A DNA stretch of 64,000 nt, from the NCBI GenBank assembly GCA_041650915.1, contig JBAZKE010000001.1, forward strand, positions 119,770-183,769, given 5' to 3'. Of the stretch, positions 4,189-42,841 are shown one piece after another. How positions within the stretch are numbered: the stretch's first letter is position 1; each line of letters begins with the position of its first letter. Both the position numbers and the translations under genes were made by a program. Source of the DNA: Patescibacteria group bacterium. Its GTDB lineage: Bacteria; Patescibacteriota; Patescibacteriia; UBA10025; JAHIVO01. Below the pieces are notes generated by a model that worked only from the letters and a program-made list of their open reading frames with translations, was not told the origin of the DNA and did not search any database.

Positions 4189-4207
4189 CTTACCGGCACA
4201 GTCTGTA

Positions 4208-4242
4208 CAAAAAAGAGAGAGCCCACCTCGGGAGGCGGGCTC
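4208..4242 (-). terminator. Rho-independent terminator for minus-strand GalT-like gene
   Basis: Hairpin gagcccacctc/gaggcgggctc (perfect with one G.U on the minus-strand RNA, A.C mismatch on plus) followed on minus strand by UCUCUUUUUUG. Confidence 0.55.
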
Positions 4243-4264
4243 ATTGTTAGGGATGTTCGAAATG

Positions 4265-5416
4265 TTACTGTTCGACCCACTGCCTGATTTGGTCCGGAGG
4301 CTGCTTCAGTATCTGAGCCGCAAATTCGGGCGGGACGGGGTTAATGCTCGTCTGAATGAACTCCTCAATTTCAGACGGGAGCTCCGGGAATTGCGGCACG
4401 ATCGTGATCGAGTAGTGGTACATTGATTCGATCATTGATCGTGAGAGCGGTTGGCTCAGGAACCCTGCATCGAGCGTGAAGCGCTCCGGTCCATTCCTGA
4501 GGATGAGGTAATACGGGAATCGGTCACCCAGCAGCGCCCCGAGTTTTGCGACAGAGTCCTGGATGAGCGCCCCGAGCTCCCCGAAGAGTTCAGGAGGAGT
4601 TGCCTCATACTGCGAGTAGTGATCGAGCGGTGTAATGCAGATCGTGAACGGTGACTGGCTCGCGTACGGTACCAACGCGAGAAAATGTTCGGTAGAGCCA
4701 ACGGTGAGCGTTCCTTCCCGTTCAATCCGGATGATATCGCATACCGGACAGCGTTCGTGCTGCATGTAGAAGCGGTAGAGCTGGGGCATTTCGAGCCGCA
4801 GCGCGATCGAGACGTGCGATACGCCTACAATCTGTACGTGCGTGTGGCTCAAGCCGCGCTCACTGACGACACTGTTTCCTCCGATTCCAATGATGAGTTC
4901 GGGGAGCATTATGATGTCGCTCTGATCGTGAATGTGCTTGAGCGAGAGAATCCGTTCTCTGCAGATTCTGAGCGCTGCGGCAAATACTGCGGGAGGAATT
5001 TCGGGCAGCGTGCTCCCGTGATCGGGAAACAGCACGCGTTCGCGCACGCCGAATGGGCTTTTGATGTTGTAGAGCCCCCGGACCCCTTCCCTGATGAGAG
5101 TTTGCGTGACGAGGAAGCTGAGGCCTCGCAATGTGGTAACCCGTATGCCGTCGCGATTCATGATGTCGGGATTGACCGCACCGCAATTCGGAATGCAGAA
5201 GTTGCACCATTCCTCCGGCGGCTGGTGTACCGAAATGCCACCGTGGTTTGCACGGAAAGCAAGGGCGAAGGTACGTACCTTTTCGAGCTGTTCTCCGGCA
5301 TCAGCGCCATCCGGTGGACGTATTGCTGTCCACGTGCCATTGAGCAGGCTCTGCCGCATATGAGATCCATGCAGGCCAACGGCACCGACCGTTGCTGCGA
5401 TATGCGAAGGGCACAT
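4265..5416 (-). CDS. GalT/HIT-family nucleotidyltransferase (galactose-1-phosphate uridylyltransferase-like)
   Basis: Zn-site-like CNFCIPNCG and active-site-like HTHVQIVG (HxHxQ) in first half, second CPVC in second half; two-HIT-half architecture. Confidence 0.5.
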   Translation of the reverse strand: MCPSHIAATVGAVGLHGSHMRQSLLNGTWTAIRPPDGADAGEQLEKVRTFALAFRANHGGISVHQPPEEWCNFCIPNCGAVNPDIMNRDGIRVTTLRGLSFLVTQTLIREGVRGLYNIKSPFGVRERVLFPDHGSTLPEIPPAVFAAALRICRERILSLKHIHDQSDIIMLPELIIGIGGNSVVSERGLSHTHVQIVGVSHVSIALRLEMPQLYRFYMQHERCPVCDIIRIEREGTLTVGSTEHFLALVPYASQSPFTICITPLDHYSQYEATPPELFGELGALIQDSVAKLGALLGDRFPYYLILRNGPERFTLDAGFLSQPLSRSMIESMYHYSITIVPQFPELPSEIEEFIQTSINPVPPEFAAQILKQPPDQIRQWVEQ

Positions 5417-8402: not shown

Positions 8403-8479
8403 AGAGTGTTTATATGTTTCATTGTTACAGAATAATGGTTAATAGTGAGAAATCGTGCTGTTCTGCCTGCCTGCGCCCA

Positions 8480-8563
8480 TGCCGAGAGGGAGACTTGAAC
8501 TCCCATGGGATTGCTCCCACACGGCCCTGAACCGTGCGCGTCTACCAGTTCCGCCATCTCGGC
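8480..8563 (-). tRNA. tRNA-Leu (anticodon CAG)
   Basis: Reverse complement folds as cloverleaf: acceptor GCCGAGA/TCTCGGC, anticodon stem CACGG/CCGTG with loop TTCAGGG (CAG), long variable arm GGGA-GCAA-TCCC, T-arm GGGAG-TTCAAGT-CTCCC; no encoded CCA. Confidence 0.85.
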
Positions 8564-8614
8564 GCATGCATCGGCAGGCAGCACTGCCTGTTCTCTTGTT
8601 TCAGTTAAAGAGAG

Positions 8615-10498
8615 CTAGTCCCATCCGAGCCTGGTTTTAATGTACCAGCTGGTGATGCCGTTAAATCTGTCAGATGGGATGGTAATTCTCGTCGTTGCTA
8701 CCCCCTTGATCTCCCGAGCTATCGCATGGTCATACGTCGGGCTGTACAAGAAGAGTGCGGGCACCTCATCGGCGATGATTTTTTGGAAATCGATGTACTT
8801 GCTTGCGCGCTCATCCGCATTCTCGATTTTTCGCGCCTCCTCGAGGAGCTTGTCGACATCTTTGTTGTAGTAGTTTGAGAGGTTGAGACCGCCGTCGAGG
8901 CTCTGCGAGGAGTGCCAGAACGGATACGGATCCGGATCAGAGCCTAGTATTTCTCCATACAGGAACGCTTCGTAATCTCGCGGCTTGATCACTTCCTTGT
9001 CGACCCGGAGCGGATTCATTATTTTCAGCTCGATGCCGACGCCGATTGCCTCCCAATTCTCACGGAGAATATCGGCTGTTTTCAGGTATTCAGGCTGGTC
9101 GACCGTCGTGAGCGAGAACTTGAGCTCCGCACCGTCTTTGGTTCGGAGGCCCCCTCCCTCGGGGATTGTCCACTCGAGCTCATCGAGCTCGGCAGCGGCC
9201 TGTGCCGGATTGTATGCATACCCTCCGATTTCAGAGCTGAATCCGAGAAAACCCTCGAGGATCGGTGCGCTGATAACCTTGCCCTGCCCCTGCAGCGCCT
9301 CTTCGAGAATTCGGCTGCGATCAACGGCATTCGCGAGCGCTTTCTTGAGCTCTTGGTCTTTGAGCAGCTCATTTTTTTGGTTGAAGAATACCGCGGTGTA
9401 CTGTGGCAGCTGGAGCGGGTATAGGGTGATGCCCTTCTTCTCGGCCAGCGTTTCGCGGTATTCCTTCGGTACGTAGCTCATGCCGTCGACGGTTCCGCTC
9501 TTGAGCGCTTCCGTCGCTGAGGCAAAATCCGGGTACAGCTTCATGATAATCGTATCGATATACGGGAGCTGGCCATAGTAGCGCTCATTGCGTTCAAGCG
9601 TATAGGATTTAATTATGCCGGAGTGGTCTTTCACGAGCTCTTTGAAGGCGTAAGGCCCCGATCCGATCGGTTTCGTGTTGTACTCTGCGAGCTTGAAGTT
9701 CGCGGGTGCGACATCGCTCCAGATGTGCCCCGGCAGAATTCCGATTGTCAGATTTGAGAGGAAGGGCGCGAACGGTTCGTTGAGCGTGAAGGTTACCGTA
9801 TGGTCGTCGATGCGTTCGGTCGCAACCCCATTGAAGTTACTGTAAAAGGGGCTGTTGTAATCCGGATCCTGGACGGTTTCGATCGTGTAGAGGATATCGT
9901 CCGCCAAGAGTTCATTCCCGTTGTGCCATTTGACCCCCTTGCGCAAGTGTATGGTATAGGTTTTTTTGTCTTCCGAAAGTTCGTAGCTAGCGGCGAGGTC
10001 CGGCACGAGCTGGAGCTGCTCATCGTAGCGGAACAAGCCAGAGTAGATGAGCACGGTAATATCGCGGTCGACGTCGCCCTGCGCCAGCACTGGATTGACG
10101 TAGGACGGCTGCCCGACAATCGCCTCCGTATAGCTTCCGCCCTGCTGCGGTAGGTACTCGACGTGGCGCTGGCAAAACCGTACGAGCAAGAAGCCGAGGC
10201 AGATGATTGTTGCCCCAATGAGTAACCGAACGATGAGCTTCTCACGTTGCGTGAGGTACTCAGGCAGGTACTGCAGCTGTTTCCACGTCGGGAAGCGCTG
10301 TTTTGCGAGTGACAGCACGAGCTTCTTATCGAGGTCGAGATTGCCGTTAAATGTCGGGGGGACTTTTACAGGTTTACTTTCGTCTGATGCTTTTCCTCGA
10401 TTGCTGAGCGCTCGTTGGAAGATGTTGCGTACGTTGAATTTCACAAACAGGTGTGTCGGACTAGGTAAGCTACTTGATGAGCACGTTCGCGAGTGCAA
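8615..10498 (-). CDS. ABC transporter substrate-binding protein, family 5 (Opp/Dpp-like), orphan, N-terminal TM anchor
   Basis: Family-5 SBP-like sequence over ~520 aa with a hydrophobic anchor (LLIGATIICLGFLLV) near residue 100; no permease/ATPase genes adjacent; start uncertain (5' end overlaps secG by 29 nt). Confidence 0.7.
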   Translation of the reverse strand: MHSRTCSSSSLPSPTHLFVKFNVRNIFQRALSNRGKASDESKPVKVPPTFNGNLDLDKKLVLSLAKQRFPTWKQLQYLPEYLTQREKLIVRLLIGATIICLGFLLVRFCQRHVEYLPQQGGSYTEAIVGQPSYVNPVLAQGDVDRDITVLIYSGLFRYDEQLQLVPDLAASYELSEDKKTYTIHLRKGVKWHNGNELLADDILYTIETVQDPDYNSPFYSNFNGVATERIDDHTVTFTLNEPFAPFLSNLTIGILPGHIWSDVAPANFKLAEYNTKPIGSGPYAFKELVKDHSGIIKSYTLERNERYYGQLPYIDTIIMKLYPDFASATEALKSGTVDGMSYVPKEYRETLAEKKGITLYPLQLPQYTAVFFNQKNELLKDQELKKALANAVDRSRILEEALQGQGKVISAPILEGFLGFSSEIGGYAYNPAQAAAELDELEWTIPEGGGLRTKDGAELKFSLTTVDQPEYLKTADILRENWEAIGVGIELKIMNPLRVDKEVIKPRDYEAFLYGEILGSDPDPYPFWHSSQSLDGGLNLSNYYNKDVDKLLEEARKIENADERASKYIDFQKIIADEVPALFLYSPTYDHAIAREIKGVATTRITIPSDRFNGITSWYIKTRLGWD

Positions 10499-29704: not shown

Positions 29705-29725
29705 AAAAGAGTTTTTCACGATCAT

Positions 29726-29766
29726 CCCTGCACCACTCCGCGATAGCTCCCCGTCATTCGACGGGG
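29726..29766 (+). repeat. Partial duplicate of tRNA-Asn 5' end fused to a 7-bp-stem hairpin
   Basis: ccctgcaccactccgcgatagctcc (29726-29750) is 22/25 identical to the leader+5' end of tRNA-Asn at 29786-29810, followed by ccccgtc-attc-gacgggg hairpin. Confidence 0.6.
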
Positions 29767-29796
29767 CAGGCAATGGTCACATGATACCCGCACCAC

Positions 29797-29868
29797 TCCG
29801 CGATAGCTCAATGGTAGAGCAACCGGCTGTTAACCGGTAGGTTGTCGGTTCGAGCCCGACTCGCGGAG
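29797..29868 (+). tRNA. tRNA-Asn (anticodon GTT), copy 1
   Basis: Acceptor TCCGCGA/TCGCGGA, D-arm GCTC-AATGGTA-GAGC, anticodon stem ACCGG/CCGGT loop CTGTTAA, T-arm GTCGG-TTCGAGC-CCGAC; acceptor helix extended by flanking complementary cccgcaccac/gtggtgcggg. Confidence 0.85.
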
Positions 29869-30045
29869 TGGTGCGGGGATTTTAATGTCTAGATAGCGAA
29901 ATGGGCCGAGGCAACGAAGTAAACTGAACTGCTTCAGTTCACGAGTGCCGAGGCGGGCATGGCGATGCGGGAACCGCCGACGTGCCCAGGAAGAGCAACC
30001 CCCGCCAAAGGCGGGTCAGCCTCTGGCTGAGGCTGCCTGCCCCGC

Positions 30046-30128
30046 CGACTGGCGGGGTTAACCGGAAGGCATGCCCCGTAGGAGCGAAGAGACTTACGGG
30101 GTTGTCGGTTCGAATCCGACTCGCGGAG
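30046..30128 (+). repeat. tRNA-Asn-derived 3' fragment (anticodon-arm piece + T-arm + acceptor 3' strand) with 33-nt hairpin insertion
   Basis: ggggttaaccgg...ggggttgtcggttcgaatccgactcgcggag; last 25 nt 23/25 identical to tRNA-Asn 3' end; no matching 5' half, so not a functional tRNA. Confidence 0.65.
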
Positions 30129-30268
30129 GTGATTGTTTTTTTATTGCGGAAAACGCAAAGGCTGCCTGCCTCGCACTCTAAACGGAGTGAAGAGCTGCGG
30201 GGTTAACCGGTAGAGGCTGCCCTGAGCGCTGGGCCGTTGTTTGGCAGTTGGTTCCTATCTTATTTACC

Positions 30269-30667
30269 CTAATCGTGATGTTGCTCGTTTGACTTATTTT
30301 CCTTGCCAAGTTTTTTCATGACGTTTTGGTTCAGCGCATTGCGCCAATTTTCCGGGTATGTTTTGGCGCTCTTGAGTAGCTCGTCGCAGAATGATGCCAC
30401 ATCCTTACCCGTAATGCTGAGCACCGGCCTGCCGTTTGCCTCGCTTTCTTCAAACAGTCCCAGTAAATCTTTCAGAATGACGACCAGGTCCATGCCGCCG
30501 CCGGCAGAAAACCTAAACATGTACTTCTTTATTTCATTATAGACAACCCGATAGTCGTTGGGCAGCGCTTTTGCGCGCGCTTCCATCTTTCTCCATTCTT
30601 TTTTATCCCCGGTGACTTTTTTAAAAAAGTTATTTATTTCTTTAAAAAAGGTAGCCATATTATTCAT
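30269..30667 (-). CDS. DUF1048-family protein (PadR-associated)
   Basis: KKEWRKMEARAKALPNDYRVVYNEIKKYMF...LLGLFEESEANG...VASFCDELL matches DUF1048 pattern; 4-nt overlap with upstream PadR gene; low GC. Confidence 0.6.
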   Translation of the reverse strand: MNNMATFFKEINNFFKKVTGDKKEWRKMEARAKALPNDYRVVYNEIKKYMFRFSAGGGMDLVVILKDLLGLFEESEANGRPVLSITGKDVASFCDELLKSAKTYPENWRNALNQNVMKKLGKENKSNEQHHD

Positions 30668-30981
30668 CCTTTTAGTTTATTAATGCGTGATGATACAAAT
30701 TCCCATTTCGCCCAAAACATTGCGAGTTCCTTTTTCCCCGCGTTGTTGAGTGTGTAGAATTTGCGCGGCGGGCCAATGGTGGACGATTTTTTCTTGATGT
30801 TTACGAGAGCGTCTTTCTCGATGCGCAGGAGGATGGTATATACCGTACCCTCCACGACATCTGTAAATCCAAGTTCGCGCAGCGAGGACGCGATTTCATA
30901 GCCGTAGGTCTCGCCGCGGCTGATGATCTCGAGAACGCAGCCCTCGAGCACGCCTTTGAGCATCTCAGTTAAATTTTGCAT
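30664..30981 (-). CDS. PadR-family transcriptional regulator
   Basis: Winged HTH MLKGVLEGCVLEIISRGETYGYEIASSL...GTVYTILLRIEKDALV; start at MQNLTEML. Confidence 0.75.
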   Translation of the reverse strand: MQNLTEMLKGVLEGCVLEIISRGETYGYEIASSLRELGFTDVVEGTVYTILLRIEKDALVNIKKKSSTIGPPRKFYTLNNAGKKELAMFWAKWEFVSSRINKLKG

Positions 30982-31098
30982 GATATGCACCTCCTTTCTA
31001 TTGATTTTATTGGTGATATATAGTAACACTTAGTACTGCTATATCGTATCACATAGTAGTATGTGGTGTCAAGGAATACACCGTAAGGCGAGGCAGGC

Positions 31099-31112
31099 GG
31101 GTTGTCGGTTCG
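31099..31112 (+). repeat. Third tRNA-Asn T-arm-derived fragment (gggttgtcggttcg)
   Basis: Exact 13-mer ggttgtcggttcg shared with tRNA-Asn (29841-) and fragment at 30099-; followed by ggttcgc/gcgaacc hairpin; lies between the two PadR cassettes. Confidence 0.5.
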
Positions 31113-31381
31113 CCGCGAACCACTAAAAAGCTCACGGCACCCATGTACCCTTTCGTAGTACATGACGAATTTCGTCTTCGGAGTTGGAGATTTTTAATGG
31201 AGCAATTCCGCAGAGCGGGGTAGGTTGCCCCGGCGCATAGTCGGGGCTCGTGGAGTTCGCCTTTTTATTCGCGTTGAAATTGATAGTGAAAATCTCGACG
31301 CACCGCGAAAGCGGCGCGGAGATCCCACGCAGAGGCAGGAGTTTGGCTTGTCCCGACAGAAACCGCAGCATCAGGAGGGGC

Positions 31382-31409
31382 TTGACAGTACTATTCGGTG
31401 TATTATACT
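31382..31409 (+). promoter_or_regulatory. Promoter for second PadR operon (TTGACA-16 nt-TATACT)
   Basis: TTGACA 31382-31387, TATACT 31404-31409, ATG at 31431. Confidence 0.5.
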
Positions 31410-31430
31410 CAATATATCGCATTACGATAT

Positions 31431-31757
31431 ATGGACCAACAATTACTCAAAGGCCATTCCCGACTCCTCATTCTGGCGGCTTTGAATAAGCGGCCAATGC
31501 ACGGGTATGCATTATCGGAATTCCTCAAAGAGGAAATGGCCGAAACTTTTAAATTTGGTGTCGGTATGTTATACCCGCTTCTCCATAAACTCGAGAAAGA
31601 TACATATATTGTCGGACGCTGGGAAGAATCTGGTGGATTGCCGAAACGGGTGTATCGGCTTACCAAACAAGGGGAAAAAGAGTTCAAGAAAAAAAAGCAA
31701 GAATGGAACAATTTGTCTCTGCTGGTGCGAAACATTATTAGCCACTCAACGATATGA
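31431..31757 (+). CDS. PadR-family transcriptional regulator
   Basis: LLKGHSRLLILAALNKRPMHGYALSEFL...GMLYPLLHKLEKDTYIVGRWEE winged HTH PadR signature. Confidence 0.75.
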   Translation: MDQQLLKGHSRLLILAALNKRPMHGYALSEFLKEEMAETFKFGVGMLYPLLHKLEKDTYIVGRWEESGGLPKRVYRLTKQGEKEFKKKKQEWNNLSLLVRNIISHSTI

Positions 31758-32590
31758 CCAATGGGCAATTTTTAAAGGATTTTCAACATCACCTCGAGGT
31801 TGGCGGCCCTCAGCGTAATGAGATCGTCAGTGAGGTGAGGAGCCATTTGCAGGAACAGCCAGCTGGTCAGCTTGGTAACCCGGCGGTAGTAGCGAAAAAA
31901 ATGAACCGCGTGCATTTGGGATTGTTTGCTTCATTTTTTTCTTTGGCGATGGCAGCTACGCTAGTAACATTACTCTTTGATGTAGTTGTCCCTTATGTCG
32001 GACTCATTTATCACGGAAGTCCAGTGTGGAAAAATGTTTCATGGATATCCTCAATACTCTGGCAATGCATCCCGTTTATTTCCCCAATCCTGTTTATTTA
32101 TGGCGCGCATGCCATCAGCCGCATGCGGAATCGGTGGGTTTACGTGGCGATACTTGTAGCAATTTTTACGGCGGGATTTTCCATGCAACAGGAGCTGATG
32201 CAGGCAACGGGTTATTTATTAATCTCGACGGTTAGCGGCAGTACGTCATTGTGGTCGATACATATTCAGCCAATTGTTACTTTTTTCTTTACCTACGCCA
32301 TCATCGGGTATGCGGTGATGGCCATCACGGCGGGCCGACAACTGATCATTTCTCGTCATCCGGTTATTGACATTACGCTTGCTTTTATTCTTGGAGGCGG
32401 GGCCGCCCGCTTCTTGCTACCGATGGTTTGGAACGCCATCACGTCGTTTCATTATACGATGGCCATGTCCGAATGGTCAGCCTCCGCCTTTCAATATCTC
32501 ACGGTGGCTAGTATCGGCATCGGTCTGTTATGCGCGGGCATTGAATGGCTCCGTATACGGTCTGTAAAAAAACTCGCCACCATCAAATAG
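31754..32590 (+). CDS. DUF1700/HAAS-like polytopic membrane protein (PadR-associated)
   Basis: N-terminus MTNGQFLKDFQHHLEVGGPQRNEIVSEVRSHLQEQ matches DUF1700 N-terminal pattern; followed by ~6 TM helices; ATGA overlap with PadR. Confidence 0.55.
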   Translation: MTNGQFLKDFQHHLEVGGPQRNEIVSEVRSHLQEQPAGQLGNPAVVAKKMNRVHLGLFASFFSLAMAATLVTLLFDVVVPYVGLIYHGSPVWKNVSWISSILWQCIPFISPILFIYGAHAISRMRNRWVYVAILVAIFTAGFSMQQELMQATGYLLISTVSGSTSLWSIHIQPIVTFFFTYAIIGYAVMAITAGRQLIISRHPVIDITLAFILGGGAARFLLPMVWNAITSFHYTMAMSEWSASAFQYLTVASIGIGLLCAGIEWLRIRSVKKLATIK

Positions 32591-32749
32591 CTCTTAAGCA
32601 GTATCTCAAATGTCATTTATTCCACGAATGGTGCGAGATTAGCCGGAAGGCTCCTATAGGTTCCAGACCGTAGTGGGGAGCTTTAGTTTTTTTAGTTGCG
32701 CATGGTGATGAATATTGACTGTCGGGGGCACACACATTACAATTGATAT

Positions 32750-34237
32750 ATGAAAACATTTTTTTTCCTAGGCCTCGTAAGTGCAGGTATTTTGTTTTTT
32801 TGGGTTTCGCCTGCAAGCGCTGATCTTGGCCCGCCGCCCGTCTTTACCCAGGGTGGCATGTTGCAAACCGATGCCGAGGCGACGAATGTGGCTATGGTGA
32901 ACGAGGAGGTTGTATTGAAATATAGCCAACCCCATAGTGATGATTTGTTCGGTACGGTGATGCCAGTTCATGTAACTGCCACATTTACCATGCGAAATAC
33001 CGGCACGGAAGCAGAAACTCTGCAGGTTTATTTTCCCTCAAACGATAGTGTTTTTATCGGCGGCTATGAGGGGGAGTATGGGACGGTGAGTAATTTTACC
33101 GTTAACGGCCGGGTAATCGGTGATGAGGGCCTCGGCCACATTGCTGCGAATATCAATAGCGAGGACCAGTCTATCCTGGTCTACCAATGGGAAGAAACTT
33201 TTTTACCGGGAGAAGATACCGATCTTGTTATTTCATATGATGCCAAGAGCGGTAAGGATTACGAAGTGTACTACCTCACGTATGTGCTCGGCACTGGCCG
33301 GGGCTGGAAAGGGCCGATCGCAAACGGCACGGTGTCCTTTGAACTGCCTGAAACTCTGACAGATTATAGCGTGGTCGATGAAGCCCCCTTGGTGGCGGAA
33401 AACGCTTTGCCGTATACGGTGGCAGGCAATACGATAACCGTGGCACTGAAGGACTACGAGCCAGAATCCGATGCAGTCATCGTTCTTGGTGTCTATAATT
33501 TTGATTTGGTGCAGCAGGTTGAAAACCTCAAACGGAATGCAACGAGCTTTGAAAATACGCTTAAGCTTGCCGGTGCCCTCCACGCTCTCTCGAGCGGTCC
33601 GCACTGCGTTTTCTGTACGGGGAAAGCTTCGGATATGGCTCTATCGTATTATTTGGAAAGTTTGGAACAGGCGGCTGCGGGAAGCGATTTAGACCGTGTG
33701 CTTGCCTCGTTTATGTTCGGGGATACAGGATTGTATGAAGACTGGACACCACCTAGCCCGTCAGAGGCAAAAGCATTGTTTTCTTTCCCGGCTTGCGGAG
33801 TTGATGATACAAACTGCCGTTATAGCGCGTATTTCGACCGCGGAGGGCTTGGCGAAACACCATTCAGCTTTGATTATACTACCCACGCCTTGAAGCATAC
33901 GGATTTCTTGGAGCTGTATGTTTCAAAAATACGTTCGTATGATTCGGTAACCGCTGATGCTATTGAGCGCTATATCCAGGATGCACCAAAAGCCTACGAA
34001 TGGCAGAATGGGCAGTATGCCCTCCCAGAGGCCGCGGACGAAGGGGCCAATGTGAATAGCACTGTGGTAAATACAAATGCCACGATTACGAATACATCGT
34101 CAGAAAATAAAAACTCATCAGCCGCGTCGGTTTCTGCTCGCCATGATGACACGCAACGCAACTGGCAATTGGTCGGTTTAGGCGTTTTGGTGGTTGCGCT
34201 GGCTCTCGGCTATTTGGCAGTTAAAGGAAAAATCTAA
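32750..34237 (+). CDS. Hypothetical exported protein with C-terminal TM anchor
   Basis: Signal peptide MKTFFFLGLVSAGILFFWVSPASA, C-terminal LVGLGVLVVALALGYLAVKGKI anchor; no recognisable domain. Confidence 0.6.
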   Translation: MKTFFFLGLVSAGILFFWVSPASADLGPPPVFTQGGMLQTDAEATNVAMVNEEVVLKYSQPHSDDLFGTVMPVHVTATFTMRNTGTEAETLQVYFPSNDSVFIGGYEGEYGTVSNFTVNGRVIGDEGLGHIAANINSEDQSILVYQWEETFLPGEDTDLVISYDAKSGKDYEVYYLTYVLGTGRGWKGPIANGTVSFELPETLTDYSVVDEAPLVAENALPYTVAGNTITVALKDYEPESDAVIVLGVYNFDLVQQVENLKRNATSFENTLKLAGALHALSSGPHCVFCTGKASDMALSYYLESLEQAAAGSDLDRVLASFMFGDTGLYEDWTPPSPSEAKALFSFPACGVDDTNCRYSAYFDRGGLGETPFSFDYTTHALKHTDFLELYVSKIRSYDSVTADAIERYIQDAPKAYEWQNGQYALPEAADEGANVNSTVVNTNATITNTSSENKNSSAASVSARHDDTQRNWQLVGLGVLVVALALGYLAVKGKI

Positions 34238-34277
34238 ATCCGAACGCCCAGGGATGAGCAACCCTGCTATGCGGAAT

Positions 34278-34309
34278 GGGTTGTCCTGCCGTGTGACGGG
34301 CTCACGGAG
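34278..34309 (+). repeat. Degenerate tRNA-Asn 3'-end-like fragment
   Basis: gggttgtcctgccgtgtgacgggctcacggag aligns with gggttgtcggttcgaatccgactcgcggag (shared gggttgtc...ctc(a/g)cggag). Confidence 0.35.
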
Positions 34310-34432
34310 TTGGGCATGAGTGCGGGGGATAGGGGCGTCGCAAATCGTCTTTTTGGGTTGATTATTTGCTTGAATAAAGCTAGTAATTGAGGGATAATCA
34401 ATATATTCTTATCCCTACAAGAATCATGGACT

Positions 34433-35494
34433 ATGCATATCCACGAAGTATTTGGCTCAATAAAGAACAACAAGAAATTTGCAGTACCTATAATTGTTGC
34501 AGTTGTTTTGGTTATCGTGATTGCCGTTATCTATTTCTTCGCATTCAGCGCTCCGGAGAGGCAAGCCGGGTTGGGGCAATTTCTTGTTAACACAAACCGT
34601 ACCGATAGCGGCGAAGTGGTAGATAATTTAGTTTTAAAAGATTTTATTAAAAGCCCGGTTGCGTTTAAGATTGTTTATTTACTGCACGGTAGTCCTGACA
34701 TTCAACCGGGTGCCTATCAGATTTCTAAATCCATGTCAGTCTGGGAAATCGCTGATATTTTGAGCCAAGAGCCAAACATGAAGTGGGTGACCGTTCCCGA
34801 GGGTTTACGCAAGGAGCAAATCGCCAACATTCTGGCGGACAAGCTCCATTGGAGTGACGAACAAACCGCTAAATGGGTAACTACCTACACGGCTATGAAG
34901 TTTGATTACGTGGAAGGCGTGTATTTCCCTGATACCTATCTTATTCCCGTTGACGAGGCACCGCTGGCTGTGGCTGAACGAATGCAGAGGCGCTTTGAAG
35001 AGCAATTCACTCCATACTCAAAAGAAGCTCTTGAACAGAACATCCAGTGGACAAGCGTCATCAAGCTCGCTTCCGTAATTCAGCGAGAAGCCGCAGGTAG
35101 TGAAGATATGCCCTTGATAGCCGGGATATTATGGAACCGTCTGAACCAGAAGATGAAGCTTGAAGTTGACGCCACCATTCAATACGTTCGGGACAGTTTA
35201 GCGCATTACGGCACGGCACCCGATTTGTATCAAGATAAGAGCTACACGGCAGAGGGAACGTGGTGGAAGCCGATTTTGGTGGCGGACAAGCAGATCGATT
35301 CGTTGTTCAATACGTATCTTTATGCGGGCCTACCGCCGCGACCTATATCTAATCCTGGTTTGGATGCTATTCAAGCTGTCTTACATCCTGAAGAAACCGA
35401 CTGTTTGTATTACCTGCACGATAATACCCGGACCATTCACTGCGCCAAGACTTTGGCTGAGCATGAGCAGAATATTGAGGAGTATCTTCGCTAA
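34433..35494 (+). CDS. mltG: Endolytic murein transglycosylase MltG (YceG-like)
   Basis: N-terminal TM, YceG-like domain with WNRLNQKMKLEVDATIQY and PPRPISNPG motifs. Confidence 0.8.
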   Translation: MHIHEVFGSIKNNKKFAVPIIVAVVLVIVIAVIYFFAFSAPERQAGLGQFLVNTNRTDSGEVVDNLVLKDFIKSPVAFKIVYLLHGSPDIQPGAYQISKSMSVWEIADILSQEPNMKWVTVPEGLRKEQIANILADKLHWSDEQTAKWVTTYTAMKFDYVEGVYFPDTYLIPVDEAPLAVAERMQRRFEEQFTPYSKEALEQNIQWTSVIKLASVIQREAAGSEDMPLIAGILWNRLNQKMKLEVDATIQYVRDSLAHYGTAPDLYQDKSYTAEGTWWKPILVADKQIDSLFNTYLYAGLPPRPISNPGLDAIQAVLHPEETDCLYYLHDNTRTIHCAKTLAEHEQNIEEYLR

Positions 35495-37491: not shown

Positions 37492-38714
37492 TTTTTTTTA
37501 AACGCAAACTGCGAATATCGATTGTTATAGCGGTTGTCCTGCTGCTTGTCTGCGTGACTGCCGTGCAGGCCGCTGTGCCTGTACCGGTTTACTTTTTCTA
37601 TAGCGATACCTGCCCGCACTGCCACAAGGAAAGTACGTTCCTGACACAGCTCGAACAGGAGTACGGCAGCAGCATTGACGTGCGCCGGTACGAGGTAACC
37701 GGCGATAGCTCCGCCCAGCAGCTCTTTAGGGCGTTTGCGCAGACGGCGAGCCAGCCTATTACGGGCGTACCCGCGACCTTTATCGGCAACCAATTCCTGG
37801 TCGGGTTCGGATCGGCGGATACGACGGGTGCGGAGATCAGGAACCTCATCGACCGCTGCATTGCTGCGCCATGCCCTGACATCGGCGCACAACTGGCTGG
37901 CGAGGCGGCCGTGCCGGAATCAGCCGATGAGCCGGATTCGATCATTACAGAGTCGGCAGGCAGCGGATTGACCATCGACGTGCCCCTCTTTGGAACGCTC
38001 GATTTATCAGATTCGTCGCTATTAAGCCTGACGGTGATTATCGCGGCGGTTGACGGTTTCAATCCGTGCGCGATGTGGGCCCTCGCGTTCCTTATCCTCG
38101 TACTCCTCGGGATGCAGGACAGGAAGCGGATGTGGATCCTCGGCACCGTGTTCATCCTTACATCGGGAGCGGTGTACTTTCTGTTCATGACGGCATGGCT
38201 CGAGTTTTTTAATGCGGTCGGGCACGTGGTGTGGATCCGGAGCACCATCGGCATCGCCGCGATAGCAATCGGCGCCTACTACTTTCGACGGTTTTTTAAG
38301 ATGAAGCCGGGTGTGTGCGAGGTCACGAATCCGGAGCAGCGGACTAAGATCATGAATCGCATTAAAGCCGTTGTCCAGCGTCACTCGCTCTGGCTCGCGG
38401 TCGCCGGTATCGTAAGCGTCGCGGCGCTCGTGAACCTCGTTGAGTTTTTCTGCTCGTTTGGGCTCCCCGCGGTGTACACTGAGGCGCTCGCGCTCTCGGG
38501 CATTGAGGGTGTCGGTAAATACCTCTACCTGCTGCTGTACGTCTTTATATTCATGCTGGACGATATGGTTATTTTTGCTATCGCGATGGCCACCATGAAA
38601 GCAGTCGGGACGACCGGCAGGTACTCACGGTATGCGACGCTGATCGGCGGCGTGGTGATTGTGCTGCTCGGGCTGTTGCTCGTGTTCAAGCCCGAGTGGA
38701 TCATGTTCGGTTAA
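37488..38714 (+). CDS. Thioredoxin-fold domain fused to cytochrome c-biogenesis CcdA/DsbD-like membrane domain (thiol:disulfide interchange protein)
   Basis: N-terminal signal + CPHC motif (FFYSDTCPHCHKE), then polytopic domain with DGFNPCAMW (CcdA-like NPC Cys) ; ATGA overlap with DUF134 gene. Confidence 0.7.
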   Translation: MIFFKRKLRISIVIAVVLLLVCVTAVQAAVPVPVYFFYSDTCPHCHKESTFLTQLEQEYGSSIDVRRYEVTGDSSAQQLFRAFAQTASQPITGVPATFIGNQFLVGFGSADTTGAEIRNLIDRCIAAPCPDIGAQLAGEAAVPESADEPDSIITESAGSGLTIDVPLFGTLDLSDSSLLSLTVIIAAVDGFNPCAMWALAFLILVLLGMQDRKRMWILGTVFILTSGAVYFLFMTAWLEFFNAVGHVVWIRSTIGIAAIAIGAYYFRRFFKMKPGVCEVTNPEQRTKIMNRIKAVVQRHSLWLAVAGIVSVAALVNLVEFFCSFGLPAVYTEALALSGIEGVGKYLYLLLYVFIFMLDDMVIFAIAMATMKAVGTTGRYSRYATLIGGVVIVLLGLLLVFKPEWIMFG

Positions 38715-38736
38715 TTCATAAACCGTGTCTGCTAAC

Positions 38737-38766
38737 GGCCGATGCACGATCGGCCTTTTTTGTTTT
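38737..38766 (+). terminator. Rho-independent terminator
   Basis: ggccgat-gcacg-atcggcc hairpin followed by TTTTTTGTTTT. Confidence 0.7.
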
Positions 38767-38794
38767 CTTTATAAAAGTACTATAAGATGTATGC

Positions 38795-39484
38795 ATGAAC
38801 GAGGTATCACAAAAAATATCCAGTTTTCTGCACCAGCGGAAGATCAGCTGGAAAACGGACGCGCTCTGGCTTGCGGTGATTGTGCTTATTATCCTCGTCT
38901 TTACGTACTTCGATACGATCATACCGGAACCTGAGGTCATTGAATCGTGGACCAATCAGTTCGGCGCGTGGGGTCCGCTTGTCATAATCGGCATCATTAT
39001 CGCTGAGACAGTATTCGCACCGGTGCCTGGTACGTTTATCCCGATCGCCATCGGCGCGCTCTATGGCGTATGGCCGGGCGTGCTGATCGGGTGGGTGGGA
39101 AATGTTATCGGCTCGGTCATCGCCTTCTGGATAGCGCGGAAGCTTGGGCGCCCGGTGGTCCGGAGGATCATTTCCGAAGAAAAGCTGCAGAAGTACGACC
39201 ACTACCTGCACCGCCGCAAGATGATGATCTGGGTCGCGTACTTCATTCCGCTCTTGCCGCTTGATGTTATCAGTTTCGTGGTCGGCCTGTCGCAGATCAG
39301 GTTCAGCTTCTTTTTCAAGATTATCGCAATCGGATTCGCGGGCAACCAGCTCTTGCTGACCCTGTTCGGGGAGCGCCTCGTCGGGGCTGCTGGCTGGGAA
39401 AAGGCACTGTGGATAGCGCTGACGGTCGTGTTCCTCGCAGCGGCGATGTTGTTCGAGCGCTCGTCGGAGCGGCAAAAAAAATAA
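38795..39484 (+). CDS. DedA/TVP38/TMEM64-family membrane protein
   Basis: VTP38/DedA core (GPLVIIGIIIAETVFAPVPGTFIPIAIGALYG...RKLGRPVV) with flanking TM helices. Confidence 0.75.
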   Translation: MNEVSQKISSFLHQRKISWKTDALWLAVIVLIILVFTYFDTIIPEPEVIESWTNQFGAWGPLVIIGIIIAETVFAPVPGTFIPIAIGALYGVWPGVLIGWVGNVIGSVIAFWIARKLGRPVVRRIISEEKLQKYDHYLHRRKMMIWVAYFIPLLPLDVISFVVGLSQIRFSFFFKIIAIGFAGNQLLLTLFGERLVGAAGWEKALWIALTVVFLAAAMLFERSSERQKK

Positions 39485-39496
39485 TCCCACCCGAAG

Positions 39497-41038
39497 ATGG
39501 AGAAAAAAAGCATTGCTACCGTTTTGCTCGTCGCGATCCTCGTACTCGGAGGCATACTGCGCTTTGTGACGCTGGACCGCGAACTCATTTTCGATGACGT
39601 CTTCAGCATCCACTACGCCTCCCTCCCCGCCGGTGATATCATGCACTACTCCGCGAGCGAGGTATCCGAGGTGCCGCTCTATTACCTCATGCTCCACGGC
39701 TGGATAGGAATGTTCGGATCCGGAGCGGTTGCAGCCAAGATGTTCTCACTGCTCATGAGCCTCGGCTCAATACTCGCGATGTACTTTTTGGGCAGGCTGC
39801 TGTTCAGCAAAACGGTTGGATTGGTAGCGAGCTTGCTCCTGAGCGTGAGTTCGATTGATATCCTGCTGTCCGGGGATGTCCGTGCATACACGCTGCTCAT
39901 ATTCTTGACGATCGCCTGTGTGTACCATTTTTGGCAGTACGTACGGAGCAGGAAGCTATCGGTACTCGTGTTGTTTTCAGCGTGCTCGGTTCTGGCGGTC
40001 TATACGCACTACCAAGCGTGGCTTGTCGTGCTGGCGCTTAATCTATTTATTTTCGTTTTTTATAAGCACCATAGCATCCCAGTCAGGCAGTGGCTGCTCG
40101 CCCAGGTAGCAGTCGTACTCTCGTTCGTGCCGTGGATCCTGTACAGCGTCATCCCAAACTTGCGGGATGGCATCTTCGGTACGAGTTGGACCAACCTCAT
40201 ACAGCAGCAGTATAGCAGGCTGATGGTATTCGACATGCCGCTCAACTTCATGCTCATGCCGCGCTTCACCGATAATGCCGCGTTTCAGCTCGGCATCCTG
40301 TGGTATACGCTTTTTTTCATCGCCATTGTTTTTGCCGCCGTCTCGTTCCGCCGCGGGCATTTTACGATTGACAAACAGCACGTGCCGGAGCGGATTCTGC
40401 TGCTCGTGCTCTTGCTGATCCCACTGTGCGCATTCTTCGTTTTTGTAGTTCCCGTGCCGAAATACTACGTCGTAGCAGCGATACCGCTCTATGTGATCGC
40501 TGCGTACGGCGCCTCGTCGGCGGTAAAAAAACCTGCGGTACTGTTTGGGATCGGCGCCACAGCGCTCGGGAGTACGTTGCTCTTTATGCCCCAGCTCATA
40601 CAGCTCGCCGCAGCTACGGGCGCCCAGGAGCAGGCAATCGCGTACATCCAGTCGCAGGAACAGGACGAGGATGTCATCCTCGTGCACCACTACCGCGCGC
40701 GGCTCTTCTTTGACCAGCACTACACCGGCACCGCGCGGGTAGCGGGCATTTACCCGAAAGACGATTTTACCGATCTCGACTATGAGATCGCGCGCTTCAA
40801 TTCGCTGCAGGAGCCGGTCATCACCCGGGATACTGTCGATGTATTGCAGAATATGATTTGCAGCAGCAACAGGATTTGGCTATACGCGAGCGAGCTGACT
40901 GCCGCTGAGAAAGAGAGCGGATTGCGGATCAGGGAGTGGCTTGATGATAACGGATGGAGAGCCGTGGAGCCGGAGAACAGCCCGTATGATTTCATTACGC
41001 TGTATGAGAGGGGCAGGCAGGTTGACGTAATCCGGTAG
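39497..41038 (+). CDS. Glycosyltransferase family 39/83-like (ArnT/PMT_2-like) polytopic membrane protein
   Basis: ~11 TM helices, early loop with DDVFS acidic motif, soluble C-terminal domain ~180 aa; RBS-less 12-nt gap after DedA gene. Confidence 0.6.
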   Translation: MEKKSIATVLLVAILVLGGILRFVTLDRELIFDDVFSIHYASLPAGDIMHYSASEVSEVPLYYLMLHGWIGMFGSGAVAAKMFSLLMSLGSILAMYFLGRLLFSKTVGLVASLLLSVSSIDILLSGDVRAYTLLIFLTIACVYHFWQYVRSRKLSVLVLFSACSVLAVYTHYQAWLVVLALNLFIFVFYKHHSIPVRQWLLAQVAVVLSFVPWILYSVIPNLRDGIFGTSWTNLIQQQYSRLMVFDMPLNFMLMPRFTDNAAFQLGILWYTLFFIAIVFAAVSFRRGHFTIDKQHVPERILLLVLLLIPLCAFFVFVVPVPKYYVVAAIPLYVIAAYGASSAVKKPAVLFGIGATALGSTLLFMPQLIQLAAATGAQEQAIAYIQSQEQDEDVILVHHYRARLFFDQHYTGTARVAGIYPKDDFTDLDYEIARFNSLQEPVITRDTVDVLQNMICSSNRIWLYASELTAAEKESGLRIREWLDDNGWRAVEPENSPYDFITLYERGRQVDVIR

Positions 41039-41146
41039 GTGCGCTATGCTCTATGCGCTATGGGATACGGCACAGCACAAACCAATAACAATAATAACCG
41101 CTTCGCCTCGGCGTGATTTTCATTGTGTAATTCAATTGAAGGAAAT

Positions 41147-41171
41147 CCCGCCGATGAGCGGGTCTTTTTTT
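41147..41171 (+). terminator. Rho-independent terminator immediately upstream of tRNA-Asn copy 2
   Basis: cccgc-cgatga-gcggg hairpin followed by TCTTTTTTT. Confidence 0.7.
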
Positions 41172-41173
41172 AT

Positions 41174-41249
41174 TCCGGGGTAGTTGAGTTGGTACAACGC
41201 CGCACTGTTAATGCGGATATCGCTGGTTCGAATCCAGCCCCCGGAGCCA
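41174..41249 (+). tRNA. tRNA-Asn (anticodon GTT), copy 2, CCA encoded
   Basis: Acceptor TCCGGGG/CCCCGGA, anticodon stem CCGCA/TGCGG loop CTGTTAA, T-arm GCTGG-TTCGAAT-CCAGC, 3' GCCA; sequence clearly different from copy 1. Confidence 0.85.
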
Positions 41250-41280
41250 GATCGGCTTGGCAGCTTACGGCGCATCTTAG

Positions 41281-41580
41281 TATGGCATCTGGGGATTTAT
41301 TGAGGATTTTGCCCTAAAACTCGGCAAGCAGGGGGTGCGGGTTAACGCCATCGCCCCGGGCGGCGTGGTCACTGAAGGTGTGGCTAAGATGGGCGAAGCG
41401 GCAGCTACTACTGGTATTGACATGAAGGAGATGACCAAGCAATTCATGGCTTAGATACTGCTCGGACGCATGGGCGAACCTGATGGGATTGGCGCGGCAG
41501 TATTATTGCTTGCAAGCGATGCTTCCGCGTACATGACCGGTTCAATGATTGTCGTTGACGGCGGAGCACTGTTGGCATAA
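41281..41580 (+). pseudogene. Short-chain dehydrogenase/reductase (SDR) C-terminal fragment with in-frame stop
   Basis: Frame translates ...ALKLGKQGVRVNAIAPGGVVTEG...[48 protein letters not shown]: typical SDR C-terminus lacking N-terminal Rossmann part and interrupted by TAG at 41452. Confidence 0.65.
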
Positions 41581-41730
41581 GAGGAAAGAATAGAGGATTA
41601 CTCATAGTCCATTGGACTGAAACCACAACCCTCGCATCATGCCATCCGACAGGCGCGGGTGTATTAATGGCGAGCAAAACCGCCCGTCGGAATTTCATTC
41701 AGTTTATAGACAACCTTTCATTCTGTCCGC

Positions 41731-41771
41731 TTGACAGTATACAATATCGTATGATATCATGATGATATCAT
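41731..41771 (+). promoter_or_regulatory. Promoter (TTGACA ... TATCAT) with tandem 10-bp palindromes ATGATATCAT-G-ATGATATCAT
   Basis: TTGACA 41731-41736, -10-like TATCAT 41755-41760; palindromes at 41751-41760 and 41762-41771, 11-bp spacing, just upstream of SPFH ATG 41793. Confidence 0.55.
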
Positions 41772-41792
41772 TAACATTAACTCACAAATCCT

Positions 41793-42662
41793 ATGATTTC
41801 CGAACGTACAGTCCTGCATCAGAAAGGTATTCCCGTGGTCGTTATTCTGCTTGTATTGCTTATCGCTTGGGTAGCGTTATCTATCTGGGCTGGCTCCGAA
41901 GAGAACGAGATCGGCGTCACCGTTGCGGTTTTCCTGTTGACCGTGACGATATTTTGCTGCCGTGGACTCATCATCGTGAACCCGAACCAGGCTACGGTCG
42001 TGCAGCTGTTTGGGAAGTACTCAGGCTCGGTCAAACAGGCCGGCTTTTGGTGGGTCAACCCGTTCACGACCAGAAAAACGGTTTCCTTGCGGATCCACAA
42101 CTTCGAGACCGGCAAGCTCAAAGTCAATGACCAGGATGGCAATCCGATAGAAATTGCCGCCGTCGTGGTATGGAATGTCGTCGATACGGCTGAAGCCGCG
42201 TTCAACGTGGAAGACTACAAGGATTTTGTTCACGTGCAGAGTGAGGCCGCAGTTCGCAACTTGGCAACCTCATTCCCCTACGATGCGCACGAAGAGGGAA
42301 AGCAGTCTTTGCGCGGCAATACCAATGAGATAGCGGTCGAGCTGCAGAAAGAAATCCAGGACCGCCTCGCCAAGGCCGGAATCACGGTCATTGAGGCGCG
42401 CATCAGCCACCTGGCGTACGCGCCGGAAATTGCCAGTGCCATGCTCCGGCGGCAGCAGGCGAACGCCATTATCGCCGCGCGCCAGCGCATTGTCGAGGGT
42501 GCGGTCAGCATGGTCCAGATGGCGCTGACGCAACTGGAGGAAAGCCATACGGTGAAGCTCGATGAGGAACGGAAAGCTGCAATGGTATCAAATTTACTGG
42601 TGGTTTTAACCAGTGATCGCGATGCGCAGCCGGTTGTGAACACCGGTACGCTCTATCAATAA
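41793..42662 (+). CDS. SPFH/band-7 (stomatin/prohibitin-like) domain membrane protein
   Basis: N-terminal TM then SPFH core (LIIVNPNQATVVQLFGKYSG...FETGKLKVNDQDGNPIEIAAVVVWNVVD) and C-terminal coiled coil. Confidence 0.75.
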   Translation: MISERTVLHQKGIPVVVILLVLLIAWVALSIWAGSEENEIGVTVAVFLLTVTIFCCRGLIIVNPNQATVVQLFGKYSGSVKQAGFWWVNPFTTRKTVSLRIHNFETGKLKVNDQDGNPIEIAAVVVWNVVDTAEAAFNVEDYKDFVHVQSEAAVRNLATSFPYDAHEEGKQSLRGNTNEIAVELQKEIQDRLAKAGITVIEARISHLAYAPEIASAMLRRQQANAIIAARQRIVEGAVSMVQMALTQLEESHTVKLDEERKAAMVSNLLVVLTSDRDAQPVVNTGTLYQ

Positions 42663-42841
42663 TGGCGAACGCGAACGGGCAAAAGCGGTTTTTACTGCGC
42701 GTAGAGTCCGGTTTGTACGATGCGCTCCAGCGGCTGGCGCGGGACGAATACCGGAGCGTCAATGGGTTGATCGAGTGGATGCTTGCTGACGCGCTGCGCA
42801 AGCGGGGCCGGCTCCCGCAGAGCCGTGTGCCGAAGGGATAG
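42662..42841 (+). CDS. Small ribbon-helix-helix (CopG/Arc-like) putative DNA-binding protein, 59 aa
   Basis: MANANGQKRFLLRVESGLYDALQRLARDEYRSVNGLIEWMLADAL fits RHH beta-strand+two-helix pattern; TAATG overlap with SPFH stop; below 60-aa ORF-track cutoff. Confidence 0.45.
   Translation: MANANGQKRFLLRVESGLYDALQRLARDEYRSVNGLIEWMLADALRKRGRLPQSRVPKG

Follow-up and report, generated by a model that had tools for sequence, protein, structure and literature searches.

Leader-peptide attenuation is a textbook mechanism, known from operons for amino-acid biosynthesis and from a small number of synthetase genes. Attenuators of the Yanofsky type (trpL, hisL, leuL, thrL, pheL and the ilv leaders) are ribosome mediated and act on amino-acid operons, and in Escherichia coli the pheM leader attenuator lies upstream of pheST, which encodes phenylalanyl-tRNA synthetase. 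T-boxes need no translation: they bind uncharged tRNA directly via a specifier codon and the T-box sequence. Bacteria of the candidate phyla radiation (CPR) have minimal genomes, in which each tRNA is usually encoded by a single gene and hardly any regulation is known. Here we analyse a stretch of 64,000 nucleotides (nt) from a Patescibacteria (CPR) contig, called the window below and numbered over its whole length. It carries two ancient paralogous tRNA-Asn(GUU) genes: Asn1, located behind rpoD, and Asn2, a small transcription unit of its own. Our results suggest that the hairpin in front of Asn2 is part of a conserved Asn-codon leader-peptide attenuator, which most likely controls Asn2 transcription.

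The Asn2 leader resembles Yanofsky-type attenuators in several respects. A short open reading frame (ORF) with a run of codons for a single amino acid lies near the promoter, its stop codon falls at or within the strand that could otherwise form the antiterminator, and the terminator has a mutually exclusive alternative helix. We infer that here too stalling would cause read-through and completed translation would cause termination. One difference is the output, which here would be the gene for the tRNA of that amino acid instead of a biosynthetic operon. Other differences are the amino acid (Asn), the (nearly) leaderless mRNA, the weak 1:2 hairpin, the CPR host and the lack of an Rfam match. 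The pheM system shares with the putative Asn2 attenuator the attenuation of a translation component for the same amino acid and the sensing of charged-tRNA supply by codon-specific stalling. However, pheM controls a synthetase mRNA, and the output here would be an untranslated tRNA freed by RNase P. T-box riboswitches respond to the same signal, a shortage of charged tRNA, and also act by antitermination in the 5′ leader before aminoacylation-related genes; in contrast to them, the Asn2 leader has an ORF, no specifier-loop architecture and no T-box match. We know of no leader-peptide attenuator in front of a tRNA gene, and a search of the literature available as open-access full text found neither such a case nor an Asn leader. 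Hence, the switch has apparently not been reported before and would be the first of the Yanofsky type with a tRNA as its output.

Asn2 itself is a proper tRNA gene. ARAGORN predicts four tRNA genes in the window, two of them tRNA-Asn(gtt), and the Rfam tRNA model gives 72.5 bits to Asn1 and 71.4 bits to Asn2 (gathering score 29). The minimum free energy (MFE) structure of Asn2 is a perfect cloverleaf with the acceptor stem UCCGGGG/CCCCGGA, a discriminator G and the anticodon GTT at 34–36, as expected of a bacterial tRNA-Asn(GUU) gene. A first-pass annotation of this DNA had already recognised the second tRNA-Asn(GTT) with its encoded CCA and had described it as divergent from the first copy in acceptor stem, D-arm and T-arm. 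We agree on both counts. Only 45 positions are identical between the two, and the differences extend to the anticodon stem, the variable loop and the D-loop length, with U1–A72 and G73 found in both sequences. A metagenome scan with the distinctive Asn2 D-arm retrieved 20 loci (these and the other contigs compared here carry L numbers), and the Asn2-type family comprises 18 genes, identical at 58–69 of 73 positions. CCA is encoded in 9 of the 18; in most of the remaining genes a leader/trailer helix lengthens the acceptor stem.

The region between the stop codon of the gene for the glycosyltransferase PMT_2 and the tRNA is organised in the same way in the window and in L025, the contig of the sole PMT_2 homologue at E≤1e-20: promoter, ATG, Asn-rich short ORF and terminator. 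In the window, the −10 hexamer ends 9 nt upstream of the leader ATG. L025 has a consensus promoter (TTGACA-17-TATACT) at the aligned place, and in 10 of 13 loci a TTGAnn-17-TAnnnT element ends 6–11 nt before the ATG. The leader mRNA must therefore be leaderless or nearly so. The window leader contains five consecutive Asn codons (AAT AAC AAT AAT AAC, 41084–41098). The L025 peptide is MEYIIVLNRNRNNNRLTSA, and the 11 distinct loci beyond these two provide further leaders such as MKRLIVKSNNNNNQF, MEKKTAKLNNNNNQT, MKKLAISLNNNNNQS, MSYIKVNNLNNNNRL, MKFRCRNNNNQNNNPLFRR and MFGKVLNNVNNANRLL. Across the 13 distinct loci (the window and 12 others) the ORFs have 15–19 codons and lie directly upstream of an Asn2-type tRNA. 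The Asn runs are broken by whole codons only, that is, by multiples of three nucleotides, and AAT and AAC replace each other synonymously. Counted over all distinct Asn2-type tRNAs, 12 of 16 have an upstream mini-ORF in which Asn is the most enriched residue. As a control, we looked for a run of the tRNA's own amino acid upstream of other tRNA genes in 560 kb of loci, and found it in none of five Asn1-type and none of 27 other tRNAs.

The first-pass annotation had described a terminator abutting the tRNA. The hairpin and its T-run are indeed there (CCCGC-CGATGA-GCGGG, 41147–41162, followed by seven T that end 2 nt before the tRNA), but they are better read as part of an attenuator than as a plain terminator. 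Terminators are found in all 13 loci, and in 11 of them the stem ends only 11–17 nt before the tRNA. This leaves no room for a separate tRNA promoter. Every locus has a segment (region 2) at the leader stop codon, overlapping it in most loci and otherwise at most a few nucleotides away, whose complement is the terminator's 5′ arm together with a few bases upstream of that arm (region 3). In the window, five nucleotides upstream of the terminator stem take part in this pairing. Averaged over the 13 loci, the antiterminator duplex has an energy of −16.6 kcal/mol compared to −7.6 kcal/mol when region 2 is shuffled, and in 12 of 13 loci the terminator hairpin is the weaker of the two structures. 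For the window, the duplex of 41107–41121 with 41142–41155 has −15.7 kcal/mol (shuffles −7.2±2.4). The helix sequences themselves vary widely from locus to locus.

Folding predicts that the two structures exclude each other. The MFE structure of the free window leader is the long alternative helix (41098–41121 with 41142–41161, −30.1 kcal/mol), and the terminator hairpin appears once regions 1 and 2 are removed (−13.8 kcal/mol). Constraints that mimic a ribosome on the stop codon let the terminator form in all 13 loci; if the ribosome is placed early in the Asn run instead, 10 of the 13, the window among them, lose the terminator. Because the 1:2 hairpin is weak, the antiterminator is the default fold of naked RNA in 7 of 13 loci, again including the window.

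Comparison between loci points in the same direction. A covariance model of the antiterminator structure, built on six other loci and searched against 513 kb, recovers the window element (41084–41170; 31.5 bits, E~0.005) and the non-seed loci L027, L041, L025 and L028. Further matches in the 513 kb are restricted to reverse-strand echoes of the seeds. In the resulting alignment 90.9% of the antiterminator pairs are paired, and seven of 13 pairs have changed on both sides. The covariation score is 0.378 vs 0.192, a value reached by none of 500 shuffles, and slid controls are 14–41% paired. The terminator pairs, to which the alignment was not fitted, are 88.3% paired, a value reached by two of 500 shuffles (slid controls 10–45%). 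Folding, covariance model and pair counts together support two mutually exclusive structures. By computation, the Asn2 leader has a promoter-near ORF of Asn codons, a terminator and an exclusive antiterminator, with both structures conserved and covarying.

Several observations weigh against an attenuator. Four Asn2-type genes have no leader (L030, L037, L045 and L033), and three loci (L028, L031 and L036) retain the terminator in every modelled state. The supportive pair counts rest on an alignment that was fitted to the antiterminator model and includes three reverse-strand rows. MAFFT followed by RNAalifold gives a consensus energy near zero for the leaders because the positions of the helices shift between loci; we replaced this column-wise approach by duplex tests for each locus and the covariance-model alignment. 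The window leader alone has a modest folding z-score of −1.8. All steps of the mechanism are computational, and translation initiation on leaderless mRNA in CPR bacteria is an assumption of the model. Lastly, extra tRNA would be useful only if the cell is short of tRNA and not of asparagine, or if Asn is synthesised on the tRNA. Nevertheless, given the comparative and folding evidence from 13 loci, we are fairly confident that the attenuator works as described.

One could also argue that ORF and hairpin are not a switch at all. The hairpin would then be the terminator of the VTT/PMT_2 genes or of a gene for a small peptide or small RNA, transcription of the tRNA would depend on constitutive leak-through or on a promoter that escaped recognition, and the Asn run would be an A-rich motif. 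The hairpin is a normal intrinsic terminator located after PMT_2, and the three loci that keep it in all modelled states would fit such a role. CPR promoters and translation signals are poorly known, and there is no match to an Rfam leader or T-box family at E≤5 in 41000–41850, nor at the gathering score in the window. However, a terminator of the preceding genes would not explain the promoter between the PMT_2 stop codon and the ORF, which is kept in L025 and eight other loci. An A-rich motif would not hold a reading frame with codon-sized interruptions and AAT/AAC wobble. The overlap of leader stop and antiterminator strand in most loci, the covariation of both exclusive helices, the restriction of the module to Asn2-type tRNAs and the short distance between terminator and tRNA all speak against it too. 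We therefore regard this joint alternative as quite improbable.

If the leader is an attenuator, it could work as follows. When charged Asn-tRNA(Asn) is plentiful, the ribosome would reach the stop codon and cover region 2, the terminator would form, and transcription would end at about 41170, immediately upstream of the tRNA. A shortage of charged tRNA-Asn would make the ribosome stall in the Asn run. Regions 1 and 2 could then pair with regions 3 and 4, the terminator would be blocked, and RNA polymerase would read into Asn2. RNase P would remove the leader of roughly 115 nt and release the tRNA. Such a circuit would raise the supply of tRNA-Asn whenever Asn codons are decoded more slowly. 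Directly after the tRNA of L034 and L042 there is a hairpin with a T-run, seen by eye and not by a scan; at these two loci nothing but the tRNA thus appears to be regulated.

What the host gains from such a switch is a matter of speculation. It could provide feedback on tRNA abundance, serve tRNA-dependent Asn synthesis or supply a spare after tRNA loss. We lean slightly towards the view that many CPR bacteria keep a structurally distinct second tRNA-Asn as an inducible spare, switched on by Asn-codon stalling in a leaderless leader peptide. The spare would boost tRNA-dependent Asn-tRNA synthesis in times of shortage or replace damaged tRNA-Asn (for example, after attack by anticodon nucleases). 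In this proposal the functional attenuator is the part supported by evidence and the physiological role is the speculative part. Among the window ORFs scanned there is no gene for asparaginyl- or aspartyl-tRNA synthetase (AsnRS, AspRS) or GatCAB. If the model is correct, tRNA supply would be under direct feedback, with a tRNA gene responding to stalling at the codons that its product reads, and the model would explain why these CPR genomes keep two very different tRNA-Asn genes. The element is compact (~115 nt) and amenable to in vitro study. For annotation, a terminator that abuts a tRNA gene merits a check for an upstream mini-ORF.

Table 1. Features of the Asn2 locus, its neighbourhood and the Asn1 region (window numbering).
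Feature	Position	Strand	Details
Sigma-70-type promoter	41022..41050	+	−35 TTGACG 41022–41027, 17-nt spacer, −10 TATGCT 41045–41050; promoter scan
Leader ORF, MGYGTAQTNNNNNRFASA*	41060..41116	+	18 codons and TGA; read from sequence
Regions 1–2, putative antiterminator 5′ strand	41098..41121	+	overlap leader stop 41114–41116; predicted to pair with 41142–41161
Regions 3–4, intrinsic terminator	41142..41171	+	stem 41147–41151/41158–41162, loop CGATGA, T-run 41165–41171; terminator scan
tRNA-Asn(GTT), Asn2 type	41174..41249	+	CCA encoded 41247–41249; ARAGORN, Rfam, fold
Short-chain dehydrogenase/reductase (SDR) pseudogene, KduD/FabG-like, C-terminal ~110 codons	41251..41580	+	in-frame TAG 41278–41280 and 41452–41454; stop 41578–41580
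SPFH and Arc/ribbon-helix-helix (RHH) cassette, self-contained	41726..42841		promoter TTGACA-18-TATCAT, near-consensus; two TGATATCAT operator-like repeats
tRNA-Asn(GTT), Asn1 type	29797..29869	+	directly after rpoD; no CCA encoded; 29796–29869 in ARAGORN
Degenerate tandem Asn1 copy, complete	29888..30128	+	split by four GC-rich insertions
Further tRNA-Asn1 fragments	29721–29749, 30197–30213, 31099–31112		

Downstream of Asn2 lies the remnant of an SDR gene. The first-pass annotation had placed a frame-interrupted SDR C-terminus at 41281. The remnant is real, but the homology begins 1 nt past the CCA, and it is interrupted by two in-frame TAG codons without a frameshift (the frame reads IGLAAYGAS*YGIWGF...VVDGGALLA*). 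It matches the Pfam family adh_short_C2 (E=6.8e-20, profile positions 152–234 of 236) and is up to 62% identical to metagenomic KduD-like SDRs. Compared to KduD/FabG-like proteins, the C-terminal 110 residues align and the Rossmann half is missing: the N-terminal ~140 residues with the glycine-rich motif are found nowhere in the window. The first TAG aligns with the catalytic Lys of the YxxxK motif, so that YGAS is followed by a stop, and the second with K, R or Q of the homologues. At seven of 21 nearly invariant positions the remnant is the only deviant in the family. Its GC content at third codon positions (GC3) is 0.57, compared to 0.65–0.75 for most intact genes. With no Rossmann fold, no intact YxxxK and an interrupted ORF, nothing here qualifies as a functional SDR, and, judged from its sequence, the piece is a genuine decayed pseudogene. 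A sequencing error, which the annotation had offered as a possible cause of the interruptions, is not what we find: the sequence including both stops is 100% identical in the contigs ENA ERZ27247363 and Logan SRR8542065, which come from two sample accessions, with assemblies that are possibly not independent. Recoding of TAG was ruled out because PMT_2 ends in TAG and the remnant lacks its N-terminal half and deviates at seven conserved residues.

A homologous SDR remnant, P0025, is found in L004, an AT-rich CPR-like contig, where an internal KduD-like fragment (4205–4580) is truncated and frameshifted and adjoins tRNA-Tyr and tRNA-Thr on the opposite strand. We considered whether it represents the same locus and rejected this. 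It is an unrelated remnant that decayed independently, and the similarity is coincidental. The context of another homologue, P0026, is cut by the end of its contig.

How did the SDR fragment come to lie against the tRNA? The simplest account is that a deletion or rearrangement left it there, and that its left end would have been kept out of the tRNA gene by selection. Alternatively, the junction could have been made by integrase recombination between the tRNA 3′ end and a secondary site inside an SDR gene. The break does fall exactly after the CCA, and relatives carry short copies of the tRNA-Asn 3′ end 130–310 nt downstream, as integrase crossovers leave behind. Read in the SDR frame, the tRNA end gives P-R-S-Q-I-G, a weak resemblance to the consensus H-P-S-M-V/I-G. 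However, the microhomology at the junction is only 6 of 12 nt by hand count and not significant, neither an integrase among the ORFs tested nor a second copy resembling an attachment (att) site was found in the window, and no relative has an intact SDR gene at the Asn2 site (or any SDR gene, among the relatives' contigs examined). Recombination by an integrase thus seems rather unlikely to us, and we prefer the deletion or rearrangement.

The least probable explanation for the locus is the one originally proposed: that the divergent tRNA came with a mobile element or serves as such an element's attachment site, with the SDR fragment and its neighbours as decayed cargo. Some features would fit. 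Among the four tRNA genes of the window only Asn2 encodes its CCA, the SDR gene is truncated exactly at the tRNA 3′ end, partial tRNA-Asn copies occur near tRNA-Asn genes in several genomes, and the neighbouring SPFH-RHH cassette is independent of its context. However, encoded CCA is found in half of the Asn2-type family and hence is not a foreign mark. L025 is colinear with window positions 38628–41177 (VTT, PMT_2 and the intergenic region; 65% nucleotide identity), and what follows the colinear block is a tRNA-Asn(gtt) identical to Asn2 at 63 of 73 positions. The 10 differences are mostly compensatory pairs in the acceptor, anticodon and T stems. From the sequences, such compensatory changes suggest that the Asn2 orthologues are under purifying selection. 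Colinearity with L025 and an orthologous tRNA with mostly compensatory changes tell us that the Asn2 locus was inherited, not imported. The L025 tRNA-Asn (5147–5219) has C33 (loop CCGTTAA) in place of the near-universal U33.

The order of the two tRNA genes is equally old. Four of the 20 loci (L029, L034, L035 and L042) have two tRNA-Asn genes on the same strand, in the order rpoD, Asn1-type tRNA and, 0.3–1.4 kb further on, Asn2-type tRNA. Their RpoD proteins are 69–85% identical to that of the window, and L042 also shares tRNA-Ser(gga)-dnaG-rpoD with it. Because the same paired order is kept in four rpoD-linked contigs, the Asn1/Asn2 pair must be older than these lineages. The distance between the two genes is 11.3 kb in the window compared to 0.3–1.4 kb in the relatives. 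Synteny with relatives, which had been suggested as a check, thus shows both copies to be conserved and gives no sign of mobile import for Asn2. Direct searches for a mobile element agree with this. There is no integrase or recombinase within 10 kb on either side of Asn2, in the Pfam matches and gene tables for 29.5–51 kb, or among the other window ORFs tested. There is also no copy of the Asn2 3′ end anywhere in the window when up to 2–4 mismatches are allowed. Exact tRNA patterns have no matches among viral contigs, and blastn against phages and plasmids finds generic tRNA-Asn genes at 76–79% identity only. Lastly, GC3 values of the PMT_2, SPFH and RHH genes (0.68–0.80) are as in most of the window, so that the composition around Asn2 is not atypical. 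We conclude, on sequence evidence, that Asn2 is a native, conserved gene of this uncultured CPR bacterium, and that an imported Asn2 is extremely improbable. A duplicated tRNA beside a pseudogene is not by itself evidence for a mobile element.

Another way to produce a tRNA gene with a precise 5′ end and a CCA is the retro-insertion of a mature tRNA. This can be ruled out, because a terminator followed by the tRNA, and a CCA followed by unrelated DNA, are the usual layout of the family.

The genes beyond the SDR remnant had also been proposed as cargo. Of this idea, the context independence of the SPFH-RHH cassette stands: in L046 and L048 it occurs in unrelated contexts, with no SDR or tRNA adjoining it. 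However, the GC3 of PMT_2, SPFH and RHH is typical of the genome. The SPFH protein is 64–81% identical across its best 120 database matches, Acidobacteriota among them.

The lineage is clearly CPR and sparsely sampled. In NCBI, the PMT_2 and SPFH proteins of the window are labelled 'MAG: ... [Patescibacteria group bacterium]' (MAG, metagenome-assembled genome), and PMT_2 has one homologue at E≤1e-20. YceG is 82% identical to a protein from a Candidatus Kerfeldbacteria MAG; apart from this one, nearly all relatives of YceG come from CPR bacteria. Synteny via YceG did not help: the species genomes closest by this protein (Kerfeldbacteria L006 at 82%, L007 at 67%) have YceG alone in common with the window, and tRNA-Asn is absent there.

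A part of the original proposal that we find reasonable is that the flanks of tRNA-Asn genes are unstable. These flanks vary in content, but at Asn2 there is neither an integrase nor a distal repeat to mark an integration site. As in tRNA-anchored islands, partial direct tRNA-Asn copies lie nearby, adjacent content varies, and an atypical block follows Asn1. Unlike in such islands, an integrase is missing, the partial copies are short range (130–310 nt) and split by conserved hairpins, and none exists for Asn2 in the window. That tRNA-Asn flanks are hot spots of recombination or insertion with variable content is therefore supported in part.

The atypical block spans 30269–35494 and comprises seven consecutive genes (DUF1048, PadR, unknown, PadR, HAAS-like, a 495-aa unknown and YceG) with GC3 values of 0.45–0.59 compared to 0.65–0.75 for most others. 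The name of the Kerfeldbacteria MAG with the 82% identical YceG indicates about 40% GC. A PadR and HAAS pair (82% and 70% identical) lies directly after the Asn2-type tRNA in L039. It is likely that the block was acquired next to Asn1, without an integrase.

Asn1 has the same position after rpoD in L029, L034, L035 and L042. In the window its leader and trailer pair and extend the acceptor stem to 17 bp (29780–29885; −57.6 kcal/mol, z=−6.6). The tRNA-Leu at 8450–8600 (minus strand) also has no CCA and a leader/trailer helix (CTGCCTGCC/GGCAGGCAG), and the CCA-less Asn2-type genes in L025, L029, L035, L036 and L039 have the same long leader/trailer helices, an unusual architecture for bacterial tRNA precursors.

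The degenerate Asn1 copy is interrupted by ~85 nt in the D-loop, by hairpins A and B (CCCCCGCCAAAGGCGGG, TCAGCCTCTGGCTGA) at tRNA position 29/30, by 22 nt near 34/35 and by hairpin C (CCCCGTAGGAGCGAAGAGACTTACGGGG) at 45/46. Related stretches occur in L042 (~7885–8060), L034 (~1995–2095) and L029 (~640–720). L042 has A/B and C, and L034 has A/B, at these very tRNA positions, although RpoD is only 69% identical. In 560 kb of loci the hairpin motifs occur beside tRNA-Asn genes only, save for two single-motif matches elsewhere. As far as can be judged from sequence, the interrupted copy is too conserved for plain decay. Of the further fragments, the first, which lies 60 nt upstream of Asn1, is a copy of 16 nt of leader and of the 13 nt with which the tRNA begins; the second resembles the anticodon arm (GCGGGGTTAACCGGTAG); and the third is an exact 14-mer (GGGTTGTCGGTTCG) 1 kb downstream. 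The window has 16 matches to the motif GCTGCCTGCC where 5.4 are expected, an enrichment that appears to reflect the leader/trailer helices and hairpin insertions near tRNA genes.

Partial copies are also seen at Asn2-type genes of relatives. In L034 (~2447–2466) and L042 (~9441–9460) a copy of the last 16 nt of the tRNA and its CCA (GAGTCCTGCCCCCGGAGCCA) follows ~120 nt after the CCA of the Asn2-type gene, past the T-run hairpin and a GC-rich stretch of ~85 nt. In L036 and L043 (~8655–8990) an older Asn2-like copy has been disrupted: its 5′ part (TCTGGGGTAGTT...) comes after the attenuator terminator, and the matching 3′ end (GGTTCGAATCCTCCCCCCAGAG) after the functional tRNA. Because the broken halves flank it, the functional tRNA, with its own leader/trailer helix, is nested in the broken outer copy. 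This suggests that tRNA-Asn cassettes replace resident copies.

An identical stretch of 29 nt (ttgcgagtgaaacgagcttgcggggttaa, positions 1–30 and 5258–5287) stands at either end of the L025 contig (5287 nt, Logan). This indicates that the assembly graph has a circular path or that the Aminotran_3-P5CR-VTT-PMT_2-leader-tRNA block is flanked by a repeat. The 29-nt stretch is one of the hairpin elements associated with tRNA-Asn genes, and hairpin B and a partial hairpin-A motif also lie between the terminator and the tRNA of L025.

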